This document shows positions 1 through 3,690 of a DNA stretch of 5,842 nt, one piece after another (within the stretch, counting starts at the first letter, position 1; each line of letters opens with the position of its first letter). This stretch comes from a virus. Taxonomy: Duplodnaviria; Heunggongvirae; Uroviricota; Caudoviricetes. The notes beneath the pieces are model-generated. The model did no database searches and was not told the DNA's origin. It saw only the letters and a list, made by a program, of their open reading frames with translations. The stretch is taken from the IMG/VR virus record IMGVR_UViG_2695420676_000007. One strand, 5' to 3'. The position numbers and the translations under genes were made by a program.

Positions 1-63
1 CTTGTGACCAGTAAGCATGAGCGAATGGCTGGCAGGTGCTACCAACACCCACCAGCCGCCCAT
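1..63 (-). CDS. Partial ORF, N-terminal fragment running off the window start (MGGWWVLVAPASHSLMLTGHK...); function unknown
   Basis: ATG at 63..61 on the minus strand, 20 bp downstream of the stop of the 84..278 gene; frame stays open to position 1. Only 21 codons visible and no clear Shine-Dalgarno, so the frame choice is uncertain. Confidence 0.2.
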   Translation of the reverse strand, partial: MGGWWVLVAPASHSLMLTGHK

Positions 64-83
64 TTTCACAAATTAAAAGTCCT

Positions 84-278
84 TCATAGCTGAAGGCGTC
101 TGTAACAGCCGAACTGGTAATCTGCCAGCCCCGCCATAACCAACTGGGTCAGTATTAACTGACAGCGTTCGCGTGAAAGATATGTGTTTTGTGCAATCTC
201 CCCGACTGTTGCCGGTTCGATGCTTAATTCATTAAAAACAACTTTCGCCGTTTCTGTCATATCTTGCTGTTTTAGCAT
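84..278 (-). CDS. Small hypothetical protein with a winged-helix/HTH-like core (TVGEIAQNTYLSRERCQLILTQL); putative DNA-binding protein
   Basis: Six-frame ORF 84..302. I prefer the internal ATG at 278..276 because it is preceded by AGAAGGAAAAAAGAC (AAGGA Shine-Dalgarno, about 8 nt spacing), whereas the ATG at 302 has no good RBS. The sequence resembles the N-terminal half of the 5221..5709 protein (P-x-T-x-G-[DE]-I-A ... [YL]-S-R-[QE]-R), suggesting paralogous wHTH domains. No family assignment possible without a search. Confidence 0.5.
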   Translation of the reverse strand: MLKQQDMTETAKVVFNELSIEPATVGEIAQNTYLSRERCQLILTQLVMAGLADYQFGCYRRLQL

Positions 279-360
279 GTCTTTTTTCCTTCTGGTTAAC
301 ATGACATACCAATAACTCTTGTCTAAAAAGCCAGCAAGATAAAAAGTCAGTATTCACGAC

Positions 361-400
361 CACCAGCGTGTTTACCGTACTGCACCAGGTTTACAGGTAC
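361..400. repeat. Tandem imperfect direct repeat, two copies of about 19 bp (CACCAG-cgt-GTTTACcGTAC / CACCAG-GTTTACaGGTAC)
   Basis: Copy 1 at 361..380 and copy 2 at 383..400 read directly from the sequence. It sits immediately next to the terminator hairpin and upstream of the 84..278 gene. Confidence 0.4.
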
Positions 401-426
401 AAAAAAACCCGCTCGACGGCGGGTTT
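401..426 (-). terminator. Rho-independent terminator, minus-strand orientation
   Basis: Perfect 8-bp stem (AAACCCGC / GCGGGTTT, 5 GC pairs) with a 6-nt loop. On the minus strand the hairpin is followed by a run of 7 T (401..407 are A on the + strand); on the + strand only TTT then AAG follows, so it is oriented for minus-strand transcripts. Confidence 0.7.
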
Positions 427-611
427 AAGTTGTGTGGCGAAGTAACCACTCTTGAGAGCATATCTGATTATTTACGATTGTAAATAATATATTCCCCCCA
501 ATAATTAGATTGAGAAAACATTACCATATTGATAATAAGGCAATTGACATAATTATAAAAATCATTCTTGGTTGATTTTAAAACAACAAATGCACGATAT
601 TTACCCAATCA

Positions 612-640
612 TTGATGAATACATCTCTAAATGTTATAAA
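612..640 (+). promoter_or_regulatory. Candidate sigma70 promoter for the 691..1962 gene
   Basis: -35 TTGATG (612..617), 17-bp spacer, extended -10 TGtTATAAA (632..640); AGGA Shine-Dalgarno at 677..680 before the ATG at 691. AT-rich context gives many promoter-like hexamers, so this is a prediction only. Confidence 0.4.
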
Positions 641-690
641 TTTATTGTTTTTCTAAAGATAACTCTCATTCATATCAGGAAAGATAAAAA

Positions 691-1962
691 ATGTCAGACA
701 TAAAAAATATACTAAAATGCATGTACTTTGATAAAAATAGATACTCAAACTTTGGCTCCGTAATTAAAAGTCTAGAGATAAATGGATTTCGAGGAATAAA
801 AAAACTAACATTAAATATAAATTTTCCGGTAACTGCAATATCAGGGCTAAACGGCGCTGGGAAAAGCACTCTTGGGCAGTTAGCAATATGCGCATATAAA
901 AAACCAGTTACAGCCCGTGAATATAAGAGATTATATATTAAAGATTTTTTCCCTGTATCTAAAGCCGATCCAGCCCCTTTCGATAATGACGCCAGTGTCA
1001 TTTATAAATATGAAACAAATGATTCAACGAAAACACAAGATGTGACTGTCACTCGCATAAAGTCTTCTTGGTCTGGATATAAAAGACAACCAGAAAGACA
1101 CTGTTTTTACATTGGTTTTACTGTCTATATTCCAAAAGTAGAACGTAGAGATATAAGTGTTTATGGCGGTAAAGACTTTGATTTAACAGAGAGAAGAAGC
1201 GTCGACCATTCAGTAATATTGAAGATGGCAAAAATAATAGGTCATCCATATGATGATATCGCATTCCAAGGAATTTCTCATAGAGCACGTCGTTCAGAAA
1301 TTGGTATTGTTGAAAGACTTGGGTATTCTTATTCTGAAAATAACATGGGGTTTGGCGAAGGAAGAGTTCTTTATACGGTTGATATGCTTGAAACAGCTCC
1401 AGAGCAAAGTCTTTTCGTACTAGAAGAACCAGAAACATCTCTTCATGAAAGCGCACAGTATGAATTTGCAAAATATTTAATGGAAGTATGTCAACGTAGA
1501 AAACATCAAATAATATTATCAACACACTCAAGTGTGATATTAAATGCTTTACCTCCTGATGCACGAAAATTACTTATTAGAGATCAGACTGGTGTCTATA
1601 TCAAAGATGGAATTTCAACAACTCATGTGAGATCAATACTGTCTGATGGGCAGTTTAAAGGGCTGCATATTTGCGTAGAAGACCAGTTTGCAAAAGTTTT
1701 ACTTAGTGAAGTAATTAGAGCAAAGCGGAGAGACATTCTTAAATCCATTCAAATCACTGATATTGGAGATAAAGATGCAGTCCGACAAGCAGTCGAGGTA
1801 TTCAAGAAAGCAGGCCTTAATGTTATTGCCGTAAGAGATGCAGATGTTGGAGAAAACATTAAAGATGATTTATTTTCTTTCCCTGGCAATAGGCCACCAG
1901 AAGTAGAAGTATTTCAACATGAGGAAGTAAAAAAAATTCCTCTACAAGGAGTATCATATTGA
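691..1962 (+). CDS. ABC-type P-loop ATPase (AAA_21/OLD-like) fused to a short C-terminal TOPRIM-like domain; candidate anti-phage defence or exclusion protein; 3' end apparently frameshifted
   Basis: 423-aa ORF with Walker A GLNGAGKST (aa 52-60, nt 844..870), Walker B LFVLEEPETSLH (aa 241-252, Asp replaced by Glu at 245) and H-loop ILSTHS (aa 275-280). The C-terminal region (aa ~320-390) has ICVED (E330) and VRDADVGEN (D383-x-D385), reminiscent of the TOPRIM Glu...DxD signature of OLD/DUF4435 nucleases. It lies on the strand opposite to all flanking prophage genes, in markedly AT-rich DNA with its own promoter and RBS. Confidence 0.85.
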   Translation: MSDIKNILKCMYFDKNRYSNFGSVIKSLEINGFRGIKKLTLNINFPVTAISGLNGAGKSTLGQLAICAYKKPVTAREYKRLYIKDFFPVSKADPAPFDNDASVIYKYETNDSTKTQDVTVTRIKSSWSGYKRQPERHCFYIGFTVYIPKVERRDISVYGGKDFDLTERRSVDHSVILKMAKIIGHPYDDIAFQGISHRARRSEIGIVERLGYSYSENNMGFGEGRVLYTVDMLETAPEQSLFVLEEPETSLHESAQYEFAKYLMEVCQRRKHQIILSTHSSVILNALPPDARKLLIRDQTGVYIKDGISTTHVRSILSDGQFKGLHICVEDQFAKVLLSEVIRAKRRDILKSIQITDIGDKDAVRQAVEVFKKAGLNVIAVRDADVGENIKDDLFSFPGNRPPEVEVFQHEEVKKIPLQGVSY

Positions 1963-2143
1963 TTTTGATTGGTTAATAAAAAAGGAAGGGATTAGTGATC
2001 ATCACAATTACACTCAAGCAATTGCTAAAGAAGCAGAATGTGAGGAGGAAGTAATTAGAACTTTAGCAATAAAAAAATATATTGAAATTATTGATGAGAA
2101 ATTTGACCCACTTATTACAAATATAGTAAGCAAAATAAAATAA
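1931..2143 (+). other. +1-frame open continuation of the ATPase gene (KKFLYKEYHIDFDWLIKKEGISDHHNYTQAIAKEAECEEEVIRTLAIKKYIEIIDEKFDPLITNIVSKIK*)
   Basis: The +1 frame is open from just after a TAA at 1928..1930 through to TAA at 2141..2143 (71 codons, no ATG). It begins inside the A8 run at 1929..1936, 30 nt before the annotated stop. An open frame of this length in roughly 30-35% GC DNA is unlikely by chance. Confidence 0.5.
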
Positions 2144-2153
2144 CAAACCAGCA

Positions 2154-2188
2154 GGCGCTAATTACTAAAAACCTTGTACATTAGCGCC
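2154..2188. repeat. Perfect 9-bp inverted repeat (GGCGCTAAT-N17-ATTAGCGCC) between the convergent ATPase and Q genes; possible terminator or operator
   Basis: Arms at 2154..2162 and 2180..2188 are exact reverse complements. On the minus strand a T-rich tract (TTTGTTATTTTATTTT) follows after a 6-nt gap; on the + strand no T-run follows. It lies 11 nt after the extended-frame stop at 2143. Confidence 0.45.
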
Positions 2189-2315
2189 ACCCTCAAATAA
2201 ATCAGTGGTTATTAAATCCCCACAAAAACATTAATATAAAGCACAAACAGTCCACCCTCCTTAATTTCATGCTAACAATACAAATTAAAAATCCAGATAC
2301 TCATAAAATATCTTT

Positions 2316-2687
2316 CTAGATATTTGAGTCCATTTCCAATTCTATTTCTAACATTATCAACATACCTTCAATGATGCCTTCTGCCTTTTGCAATAAGCGC
2401 CCAACCCAGCAATCAGAACGCCCATGTTTACGGGCAAGCGCCATAAACGTCATACCACCTACATAATAATCTACTAATAAATCGTGCAAATCGCTGTTGT
2501 TCTTTTTCAGACGGGCCATGCACCCGCAAATGATCATCGCGTCATCGTCACAACATTGCGGGCGGGATTTTACTTTTGAAGGAAGTAATCCCTTAAAACC
2601 GGCAGCAATGGACGACCAGGTCACATCCTCATGATTATTAGCCGCCCATGCCCCCCAACGTTCAAGAACCATTTGAATATCACGCAT
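2316..2687 (-). CDS. quuD: Late-gene antitermination protein Q (short QuuD/phage-82-type Q)
   Basis: The translation from the ATG at 2687 ([62 protein letters not shown]...) matches my recollection of the DLP12 QuuD antiterminator family, including the Cys-rich zinc motif. The six-frame start at 2702 is a TTG; the ATG at 2687 is preceded by GGAGGA with 6-nt spacing. Stop TAG at 2316..2318. Confidence 0.85.
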
Positions 2688-2704
2688 CAACTTCCTCCAC
2701 AAAA

Positions 2705-3385
2705 TCAGGCCAGCACGCCTATTGCCAGCGCACGATCGATAAAACGAAATATCAGCTCCAACTGGGAGCCATACTTCTCTTCAAATGCCACGGTATCCGC
2801 ATGCAGCTCGTCGTGATGCTTTCTGCACAAAGGCAACACAAAGAGGTCATGCGCTTTTGTACCCATTCCACCCTGACCGTGGCCTATCAGGTGGTGGGGA
2901 TCATCAGCAGGCTTTCCACAACATGCACACGGCTGTGTCTTAACCCAGCGCGTGTACTTTTCGTTAACCCAGCGGCGACGTTTTGGGCGTAACATAAAAG
3001 ACTCCGGCGACTCCGGATCCACTTTCAGCGCCAGCACCTTTTTCACTTTATCCTGGATGATGCTGGTGGCAGGAACCGAAGGAACAAGGTCACTTTCCCG
3101 GGTGACAGACGGCACAACAGGCTTCGGTAATCTCAGTGCCTTACGGGCTGCACTTTCCGGCAAGGCACCCGCCAGGTCATTACGAACCAGCCACCAGCAC
3201 AGTTCCGGCATTGTCACAACGTGACTGTCATCAAAACCGAGATCCCGACGCACAACAGACAACACCCAGCGGGCACAGTTATCCGTTGCCATTGATTCCA
3301 GCCGTTCCGTGAACTGATCGCGCAGCTGGTTATCGCAGTGCCAGCACAGACGGATTGCGCCCGGAGCGTGTCGCATTGTGGTCAT
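2705..3385 (-). CDS. DUF968-like (YdfU-like) Cys/His-rich phage protein; putative zinc-binding nuclease-like protein of the nin region
   Basis: 226-aa ORF with motif [44 protein letters not shown], which I recall as typical of DUF968 proteins found just upstream of Q in E. coli prophages. The ATG at 3385 overlaps the stop of the upstream ORF (ATGA). Family name from memory, not verified. Confidence 0.7.
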
Positions 3386-3690
3386 GTTCTCGCTGTGCCA
3401 GTCGGAATGAGGCCACTGGCAGCCAGTAACCAGCTTTCAAGACATTCCACGCCACCAGCACGACGGATCACTGCCTCATTGCGGAACACGGCCCGAACGG
3501 CAGGATCATCCGCCAGCGGTTGTGATGCCGCCGGAACGGCGCCACTGGCGAAAGATGAATAACTTTCCGGCTCAGGCTCCAGCAGGACACGCCCCTGCAT
3601 AAACAGGGGCATCAGCTCTGAACCAGGCCTGAACAATACGATCCCCATACGCGGGGCAATTTCAGGGGTCAGTAGTGCTCTCACGGTCAC
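3382..3690 (-). CDS. Hypothetical protein (about 100 aa or shorter); start codon uncertain
   Basis: ORF exactly filling the gap between the KilA-N gene stop (3692..3694) and the DUF968 gene start, with an ATGA stop/start overlap at 3382..3385. The first codon at 3690 is GTG with no clear Shine-Dalgarno; internal ATGs exist. It could be a separate gene or the detached N-terminal part of the downstream protein. Confidence 0.4.
   Translation of the reverse strand: MTVRALLTPEIAPRMGIVLFRPGSELMPLFMQGRVLLEPEPESYSSFASGAVPAASQPLADDPAVRAVFRNEAVIRRAGGVECLESWLLAASGLIPTGTART

Follow-up and report, generated by a model that had tools for sequence, protein, structure and literature searches.

The stretch of DNA analyzed here (the window, 5,842 nt) is part of an E. 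coli lambdoid prophage. Positions 1–2750 match ten complete chromosomes at 99.7–99.9% identity, and an eleventh complete E. coli chromosome covers 92% of this segment. On the minus strand the genes are found in the order PerC-like, LexA-like, rusA, KilA-N, DUF968 and then the antiterminator gene Q (2316–2687). Q is followed by an ATPase gene on the plus strand (691–2143) and by a small minus-strand open reading frame (84–302) of 64–72 aa, which is winged-helix/TrmB-like and starts the late-side genes. In the identical prophage L001, the minus strand beyond this small open reading frame carries a DNA methyltransferase, essD, rrrD, Rz, terminase and portal. The gene order and the late genes of L001 therefore give the minus strand as the direction of both early-right and late transcription. 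The intrinsic terminator that is the subject of this analysis is situated in the Q-to-lysis interval, and the small open reading frame is the first one downstream of it. Compared with L001, the window copy is frameshifted in two genes, the ATPase gene and the DUF968 gene, and the DUF968 gene displays a 10-bp deletion. From the sequence, the prophage copy may be decaying, or sequencing errors may be the source of the frameshifts.

The terminator is found at 401–426 on the minus strand and consists of AAACCCGC-CGTCGA-GCGGGTTT followed by a U-run. A minus-strand scan places the hairpin at 426–405 with 8 pairs (5 G-C), a 6-nt loop and a T7 tract that runs to position 401; the hairpin fold is −12 kcal/mol (z = −2.9). 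A sequence-only reading of this DNA had proposed a minus-strand terminator at this site, and by both scan and fold it is real. As that reading also remarked, there is no minus-strand gene immediately upstream: none is present for ~1.9 kb, where Q (2316–2687) is the nearest, and the plus-strand ATPase gene lies between. The hairpin is homologous to a VT1-Sakai feature annotated as "putative rho-independent terminator for pR' transcript" and to an annotated terminator of SfV as well. L001 has a stem variant, G-to-A at window position 408. A bidirectional terminator was considered and rejected; the plus-strand side of the hairpin has TTT only, and there is no plus-strand gene upstream.

A conserved promoter is situated 28 nt upstream of the terminator hairpin. 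The consensus promoter scan shows TTTACA-16-TATGCT at 484–457 (minus strand), with only a 9/12 match to the consensus. The −35 hexamer TTTACA (479–484), from the promoter scan, aligns with the annotated late promoter of VT1-Sakai and of Ss-VASD, and the −10 hexamer TATGCT (457–462) is given by both the scan and the alignment. A distant BLAST search of window positions 395–490 against phage genomes yielded 356 matching records. The matches to the Stx phages H-19B, VT1-Sakai and Ss-VASD have 80% identity over 93% of the query, and they coincide exactly with the VT1-Sakai annotations "putative late promoter", "putative Q-utilization" and "putative rho-independent terminator for pR' transcript"; the Ss-VASD match coincides exactly with the annotated "putative late promoter PR'". 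Positions 396–484 share ~80% identity over 89 nt with the pR', leader and first hairpin of H-19B and VT1-Sakai, and the −35, the 16-nt spacer, the −10, AAGAGTGGTTAC, GCCAC and the hairpin are all in register in the Stx phage alignment. From this alignment, pR', the leader and the first intrinsic terminator appear to form one compact unit at 396–484 of the minus strand. The proposal of a promoter-then-terminator late-leader module displaced from Q is thereby borne out, the unit being homologous to H-19B pR' and Q being 1.83 kb away. A late promoter directly adjoining the Q stop, the placement that the sequence-only reading had set against displacement, was looked for in 2144–2315. This interval shows no minus-strand promoter-like or terminator-like site and no conserved DNA, and no second copy of the leader motif is found there with up to 3 mismatches.

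The position of the start site is given by homology to the Sakai Stx phages. Sy et al., using dRNA-seq, place the pR' start of both of these phages 258 nt before the tR' 3' end found by Term-seq (PMC7547250). In VT1-Sakai (L009) the T-run of the second annotated terminator ends at position 1792, and the start, 258 nt back from this end, is thus A1535 of L009. A1535 lies in GATAAG-A-GTGG, seven bases past the −10, and aligns with window position 450, so that the putative transcription start in the window is the A at 450 (minus strand, ~±2 nt). From A450 to the last U (401) there are 50 nt, and the hairpin occupies +25 to +50 of the leader as a first late terminator of the tR' type. Because the conserved promoter is only 28 nt upstream of the hairpin, the predicted RNA is ~50 nt long, and the 6S-like transcript of 170–190 nt expected earlier is not supported. 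The hairpin may be a partial first stop rather than the main tR', since the 3' end of the Stx-phage pR' transcript (258 nt) lies beyond the homologous hairpin. A 49-nt product in Stx phages could have escaped ordinary RNA-seq libraries.

The start site and initial transcribed region, AAGAGTGGTTACTTCGCCAC (434–453, minus strand), is conserved and is present as a single copy in the window. It holds a 5' hairpin, GUGGU/GCCAC (+2 to +17), and a weak −10-like sequence, TACTTC (+7 to +12). AAGAGTGGTTAC is invariant in the two alignments A1 and A2, which were built from loci found through flanking homology. As a pause-element candidate, TACTTC has a 2/6 match and is without T at position 6; the H-19B candidate is TACATT with a 4/6 match. 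In the window, the initial transcribed region shows no convincing −10-like pause element. The 54-nt predicted leader folds with −20.1 kcal/mol (z = −4.2). A scan of the whole window with Rfam (E ≤ 1) shows no known RNA family, and the best result is a sub-threshold Trp-leader match on the terminator, with 22 bits against a gathering score of 41 bits.

A strongly structured leader of this kind that ends in a U-tail raises the question of a small RNA. The ~50-nt leader would consist of the 5' hairpin, a single-stranded CACAACUU and the terminator hairpin with its U-tail, and 3720 of the 5426 complete E. coli genomes carry the 89-nt module, cryptic prophages included. In addition, pR' of Stx lysogens is reported to be constitutive, and the terminated pR' product gave rise to StxS, an sRNA that binds Hfq (PMC7547250). 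The unit could accordingly be read as a source mainly of a trans-acting, StxS-like small RNA expressed in the lysogen, with antitermination secondary or lost. However, only nt 1–79 of the 258-nt Sakai transcript align with the window (450–372) and the 74-nt functional StxS part is absent, no Rfam family is matched, the conservation of the leader is equally explained by a DNA-level role in Q loading, and an intact cognate Q is present together with late genes. A main role as a small RNA is for these reasons very unlikely.

The Q open reading frame (2316–2687, minus strand, 123 aa) gives a full-length match to PF06530 (E-value = 1.6e-51) and is annotated in RefSeq as "antiterminator Q family protein". 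It is 80% identical to the H-19B Q over 123 residues and is related to the Q21 structures 6P18/6JNX (E-value = 2.7e-8). The name Q21/Q933W family for PF06530 Q proteins is that of Yin et al. (10.1101/651190). According to 10.1101/651190 and PMC6606751, Q proteins of this family bind a DNA element within pR', load on polymerase at a sigma-dependent pause in the initial transcribed region, and form a nozzle on the RNA exit channel that blocks formation of the terminator hairpin. The sole Q in the window is of PF06530, and a lambda-family Q (PF03589) is not found there. The homologue of the unit is correspondingly a pR' of the H-19B/933W type with a Q of the Q21/Q933W family (PF06530), and not lambda pR', on which the sequence-only reading had modeled it and which goes with a Q of the PF03589 family.

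In H-19B the final 21 codons of Q enter the promoter, with ...AGT TTA CGA TCG TAA covering the −35 and the start of the spacer. The window retains TTTACAATCGTAA at the position of the H-19B Q tail, but the window Q ends earlier (...LEMDSNI). The sequence from the Q core to base −36 is thus replaced by a cargo segment. The cargo may have been inserted into an H-19B-like ancestor, or H-19B may have been derived by loss of cargo; either direction is compatible with the sequences.

The cargo segment (485–2315) is AT-rich, with 24–39% G+C, and is outside the homology, which stops at 484 on one side and 2329 on the other. It contains an ATPase-Toprim (OLD-like) gene annotated as "ATP-dependent nuclease" (691–2143, plus strand), which has AAA_15/AAA_21 matches and is antisense to Q and pR'. 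The ATPase also matches PADLOC HEC-04 (E-value = 3.9e-47) and ATPase-Toprim_I-B. In the window the gene has a +1 frameshift at an A8 run (1923–1930); L001 has A7 and an intact 483-aa gene. Because the cargo segment is interposed, the Q stop (2316) and the −35 of the unit (484) are 1.83 kb apart, and the gap with its antisense gene departs from the textbook layout in which the late promoter adjoins Q. A comparison of 486–2315 with the phage collection yielded no match. Homologues of the ATPase in 57 other genomes, including Kluyvera and Serratia, show DNA similarity that begins at the ATG (691) and ends at ~2106–2119.

BLAST of window positions 1–2750 against related loci gives the breakpoints of homology. 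The terminator and the DNA downstream of it are common to every relative compared, and the upstream end of the homology varies. In SfV and a Stx2k phage, which carry a lambda-family Q (PF03589; the SfV Q was the one tested), homology ends at 425, which is the upstream edge of the hairpin. In three loci with the window-type Q and different cargo (L003, L004 and L005) it ends at 484, the first base of the −35. It ends at 472 in phiP27, which has a PF06530 Q, and at 453 in cdtI, whose PF06530-type Q is 51% identical to the window Q. The 58 nt at 427–484 contain the promoter-like TTTACA-16-TATGCT. On the Q side, L003 and L004 are again homologous from 2329, which is 13 nt from the Q stop. Two anchors appear to survive cargo exchange, one being the Q core as far as ...LEMD and the other the promoter from −36 onward.

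These breakpoints bear on a reading of the hairpin as an insulator, i.e. a terminator of the cargo or early region that has no promoter of its own and stops read-through before the late genes. Early transcripts extending beyond Q would cross the ATPase gene in antisense before reaching 426–401, and the scan predicts no other minus-strand terminator from 2315 to 426. But the terminator is outside the cargo, homology to loci with no cargo or with other cargo spans 1–484, and the conserved promoter and leader always precede the terminator at a fixed distance. Such a role is moreover compatible with a tR' function and is not an alternative to it. An insulator lacking its own promoter is extremely unlikely.

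On the minus strand, positions 599–609 read ATTGGGTAAAT, an exact 11-mer of the spacer end and −10 (TAAATT) of lambda pR' (positions 770–780 of the lambda locus, L012). The chance expectation is ~0.01 exact 11-mer matches per window. The sequence-only reading had likened this site to the lambda pR' −10 region and placed the promoter there, ~175–200 nt upstream of the terminator. The likeness holds for the 11-mer, but the flanks are unrelated: lambda pR' reads TTGACT-TATTGAATAAAATTGGG-TAAATT-TGACTC-AACGATGGG, whereas the window reads ...AGATGTATTCATCAATGATTGGG-TAAATA-TCGTGC-ATTTGTTGT, and 3/17 bases match upstream and 5/16 downstream. The hexamer at the 11-mer is TAAATA, with no T at −7 and without a usable −35, and TCGTGCATTTGT comes next. 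A lambda-type pause element, AACGAT at +1 to +6, is absent from the flank of 599–609. None of the 14 promoter-like sites listed by the consensus scan corresponds to the 11-mer; the best minus-strand site of the scan, a 10/12 match at 581–552, lies nearby. The 11-mer belongs to the cargo DNA, and the real promoter at 457–484 lies 115 nt downstream of it. A candidate promoter for the ATPase gene (611–639), proposed earlier as divergent from and back-to-back with the late promoter, is divergent from pR' but ~127 bp apart from it.

The stretch 486–700 is present in only 11 of 5426 E. coli genomes, all of which carry the ATPase cargo, and because it is confined to these 11 near-identical prophages it has no comparative power. 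The 200 nt upstream of the ATPase gene and the 11-mer are not conserved in any of the 57 other genomes with ATPase homologues, and 486–700 is likewise absent from loci in which a Q of the same type accompanies other cargo. The site might nevertheless be taken as a lambda-pR'-like promoter, with a −10 at ~598–603 (minus strand), which drives a 6S-like RNA of 170–200 nt to 401 and is the Q-responsive unit. The exact 11-mer, rare by chance, speaks for this, as do the 10/12 site at 581–552 and the frequency of weak promoters in AT-rich DNA. Against it are the defective −10, the missing −35, the absence from the scan output, the unrelated flanks without AACGAT, the confinement of 486–700 to one set of prophages, and the choice of the motif post hoc. 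The Q of the window is also of PF06530, and lambda Q is reported to be inactive on H-19B (Neely and Friedman 1998, cited in PMC6266700). A Q-responsive promoter at the 11-mer is scarcely credible. The 11-mer is treated as a coincidence, and a weak extra promoter in the AT-rich cargo DNA, though conceivable, finds no support.

A scan of IMG/VR for the leader motif AAGAGTGGTTACNTNGCCAC gave at least 120 loci, counted without de-replication, and the counts therefore describe the sample and not natural frequencies. Among the matches listed, a PF06530 Q was located in 104/120 loci, always upstream and on the same strand; in the other 16/120 the motif was near a contig end or Q was undetected. Again among the matches listed, the spacing between the Q match and the −35 is −10 nt in 18 loci (the H-19B type, in which the Q tail overlaps the promoter), 11–47 nt in 12 loci and 0.5–3.0 kb in 74 loci. 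When seven reference loci are combined with the matches listed, the displaced layout (a gap of at least 400 nt) is found in 81 of the 111 loci with a located Q. A hairpin with a T-run ends 47–61 nt past the inferred start in 124 of the 127 loci (matches listed and references). Several of the hairpins at that place are unrelated in sequence, e.g. CCCTGCC...GGCGGGG, CCTCGC...GCGGGG and CCCACC...GTGGG, which speaks for selection acting on termination itself at this position. In RefSeq, among the matches listed, the module is without annotation except where Q overlaps it. Recognition of the 89-nt module locates the late transcription start in prophages whose late promoter is away from Q, and the unit offers a precise sequence anchor for mining the Q-to-pR' cargo slot.

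The cargo found in the Q-to-pR' gap is varied. In the 81 loci with the displaced layout (matches listed and references) it forms 45 protein clusters, and it is antisense only in 65/81 of these loci. Of ten further cargo representatives, four have matches to candidate defence families (PDC-S20, PDC-M53A, NsnA/PD-T4-2 and HEC-04). The module also explains how antisense cargo such as porins and defence candidates can occupy the Q-to-lysis interval while staying outside the late transcript.

A candidate Q-binding element is situated within the promoter of the window. An imperfect palindrome, ACAATCGT, is found at 474–481 (minus strand; −31 to −24) and is followed by an A-rich AAATA (473–469). Among 100 loci the box at −31 to −24 is palindromic in each Q clade and is followed by an A-tract, but its sequence differs by Q clade. 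In the clade of H-19B and the window it reads ACGATCGT, ACAATCGT or ACGTACGT, the last of which is also found in DLP12-type loci. Among the matches listed, it reads GCGTACGC in the clade with a 113-aa Q (29 loci), GCGGTCCGC in the cdtI clade (31 loci) and GTTATAAC in a further clade (10 loci); phiP27 has GGAATTCC. The leader and terminator are common to the Q clades while the box changes, and the Q clades diverge most in the helix-turn-helix region of Q. The clade-specific palindromes would fit a Q-binding element built differently from that of phage 21, which has direct TGAGCA repeats. The linkage of box and Q clade may also come about through co-inheritance. A direct-repeat element similar to that of phage 21 was considered and rejected, as the second ATC in the spacer varies in position or presence among close relatives.

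It is suggested tentatively, at somewhat less than even chances, that the interval from the Q stop to the pR' −35 is a dedicated, reused cargo slot in Q933W-type prophages and that Q reads the palindrome at −31 to −24 with its A-tract. If this is true, the architecture of the Q-binding element differs from the direct TGAGCA repeats of phage 21. The Q-clade palindromes provide directly testable candidate Q sites for the 933W-type Q that controls Shiga toxin expression.

Taken by sequence comparison, positions 396–484 of the minus strand are very probably the late promoter pR' of the prophage, with a short leader and the first intrinsic terminator. Sigma-70 polymerase would start at about A450 and, without Q, stop at the hairpin and U7 tract (426–401) to give an RNA of ~50 nt, and the small open reading frame, DNA methylase, holin, lysozyme, Rz and terminase downstream would stay off. 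After induction, Q (2316–2687) would be made as the last gene of the early-right operon. It would then act in trans by binding pR' DNA at 457–484, probably at the ACAATCGT box at −31 to −24, and load on polymerase paused early in the leader, with predicted read-through of 401–426 and of later terminators. Read-through polymerase would continue into the small open reading frame, the methylase, and the lysis and morphogenesis genes. For this prophage, we infer the start site, the binding of Q to the box, the pausing and the Q-dependent read-through. Because Q is diffusible and acts in trans, its separation from pR' would have no effect on function, and the Q-adjacent layout is a positional habit rather than a mechanistic requirement.

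Among known systems, SfV shares the terminator and the downstream DNA (small open reading frame and methylase) with the window, with 97% identity to window positions 1–425. However, SfV has a 250-aa PF03589 Q, no cargo and a lambda-type pR' of its own, TTGCAT-17-TAAGAT-6-AACGATGGG, situated ~65 nt ahead of the T-run end. SfV thus exemplifies a true lambda-type pR' combined with this terminator, and nothing similar is found around window positions 599–609.

The likeness to lambda pR'-qut-tR' and 6S RNA is one of regulatory idea, i.e. a constitutive promoter, a short terminated leader and read-through with Q. The lambda pR' leader is 194 nt. Lambda has a Q of an unrelated family (PF03589), and its TTGACT-17-TAAATT-6-AACGATGGG arrangement is absent from the window. 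In phage 21, Q21 is a PF06530 protein like the window Q, and pR'21 displays the same logic of a Q-binding element in the promoter, a sigma-dependent pause in the initial transcribed region and a terminator downstream. Q21, at 162 aa, is only distantly related to the window Q. The phage 21 element is a pair of direct TGAGCA repeats in which the C:G pairs at −21 and −13 are key (PMC6606751), whereas the window displays a clade-specific palindrome at −31 to −24 and no direct repeat is evident.

A late-gene switch made up of promoter, ~50-base leader and terminator is a known prophage arrangement, for which Shiga-toxin phages are the best-studied case. The Stx phages H-19B, 933W and VT1-Sakai resemble the window in the 16-nt spacer, the hairpin from about +25 and the late genes downstream. 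Their Q is 144 aa long, and its last codons overlap the −35, with the stop 13 nt inside the promoter, whereas the window Q is 123 aa long and 1.83 kb away. The box is ACGATCGT in the Stx phages and ACAATCGT in the window, and the pause hexamer candidates are TACATT and TACTTC, respectively. The Stx phages have a 258-nt leader to a second terminator, which yields StxS, and that part is absent in the window.

DLP12 (qsr') of E. coli K-12 MG1655 shares with the window the Q clade, the module (GTTTACGTACGTAAAAAATTGGTTATGCTGTTAAGAGTGGTTAC...), the displaced layout with antisense cargo, and lysis genes downstream. Its order is quuD, IS5, nmpC (antisense), the module, and then essD, rrrD and rzpD. 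The DLP12 cargo is a porin (nmpC/ompC), whereas that of the window is the ATPase-Toprim gene. In addition, the DLP12 module is ~120 nt before essD, without a small open reading frame or methylase between, and the box is ACGTACGT. A Q-type antiterminator of the phage reportedly controls the DLP12 lysis operon (Rueggeberg et al. 2013, cited in PMC7918800). The displaced layout is common in the family and is present in E. coli K-12, and the terminator of the window is an ordinary instance of a well-understood system.

Among 5426 complete E. coli genomes, 3720 contain the promoter-leader-terminator module (window 396-484, minus strand), and as many as 6 copies occur per genome. Among the RefSeq rows listed for E. 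coli genomes, the module carries no annotation unless a Q gene overlaps it. The gap between Q and the late promoter pR' (window 485-2315) is a variable cargo slot; among the matches listed and the reference loci, 81 loci in all, it holds 45 protein clusters, and 65 of the 81 gaps contain antisense cargo only. In PADLOC, candidate defence families (HEC-04, PDC-S20, PDC-M53A and NsnA/PD-T4-2) give matches to the ATPase of the window and to 4 of the 10 further representatives of the cargo.

Two genes of the window are frameshifted relative to L001, the otherwise identical prophage of strain JX21CE35. The ATPase-Toprim gene (691-2143, plus strand) has a run of eight A residues at positions 1923-1930 in place of the seven in the intact 483-aa gene of L001, and the open reading frame is thereby broken at 1962. 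Either the gene is a pseudogene, or the extra A is a sequencing error in the homopolymer. In the DUF968 gene, a 10-bp deletion at position 3424 splits the coding region into open reading frames 2705-3385 and 3382-3690.

A plausible promoter for the ATPase cargo is present at 611-639 on the plus strand (TTGATG-17-TATAAA, where a preceding TGT gives an extended -10-like element). The site is about 50 nt ahead of the ATPase start codon and is divergent from pR', the two being about 127 bp apart; the promoter scan missed it, as the hexamer has an A in sixth place. The ATPase and Q genes converge, and between them, directly past the stop codon of the ATPase, is a 9-bp inverted repeat, GGCGCTAAT-N17-ATTAGCGCC (2154-2162 and 2180-2188). 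The repeat is absent from the terminator scan calls for the window; it may form the transcript end for the ATPase, Q or both. The minus strand at 81-96 carries a hairpin resembling a terminator, CCTTCAGCTATGAAGG with ACTTTTAATT after it, which overlaps the small open reading frame's stop codon, its last three bases being the first three of that codon. Within the late leader region, this hairpin may provide a second stop.

The stem of the leader terminator itself varies. In the JX21CE35 prophage, the outermost G-C pair has its G replaced by A on the minus strand (window 408, L001 position 6408), and in many relatives the stem is one G shorter (GAGCGGTTTTTTT). Thus terminator strength is predicted to differ from copy to copy. 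Phage phiSTEC1575-Stx2k has two copies of the window-type terminator, one at 2880-2912 and another at 3558-3589 of locus L007; one is situated about 107 nt after a lambda-type Q and the other after a 142-aa gene that has been inserted. The arrangement looks like an insertion of cargo behind the terminator along with a duplicate of the terminator.

In its first 17 nt the predicted leader has a small conserved hairpin, GUGGU-UACUUC-GCCAC (window 434-449, minus strand), which is also an inverted repeat at the DNA level. Candidate roles are a pause, Q loading or RNA stability. Upstream, at promoter positions -31 to -24 (window 474-481, minus strand), loci L003-L132, the comparison set, display a palindrome of 8-10 bp followed by an A-tract. 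The leader downstream of this box is common to the loci; the box itself varies with Q clade, the variants being ACGATCGT/ACAATCGT/ACGTACGT, GCGTACGC, GCGGTCCGC, GTTATAAC and GGAATTCC. From sequence comparison, the clade-specific palindromic box is a candidate Q-binding element. Phage 21 has direct repeats, whereas the window-type box is a palindrome instead.
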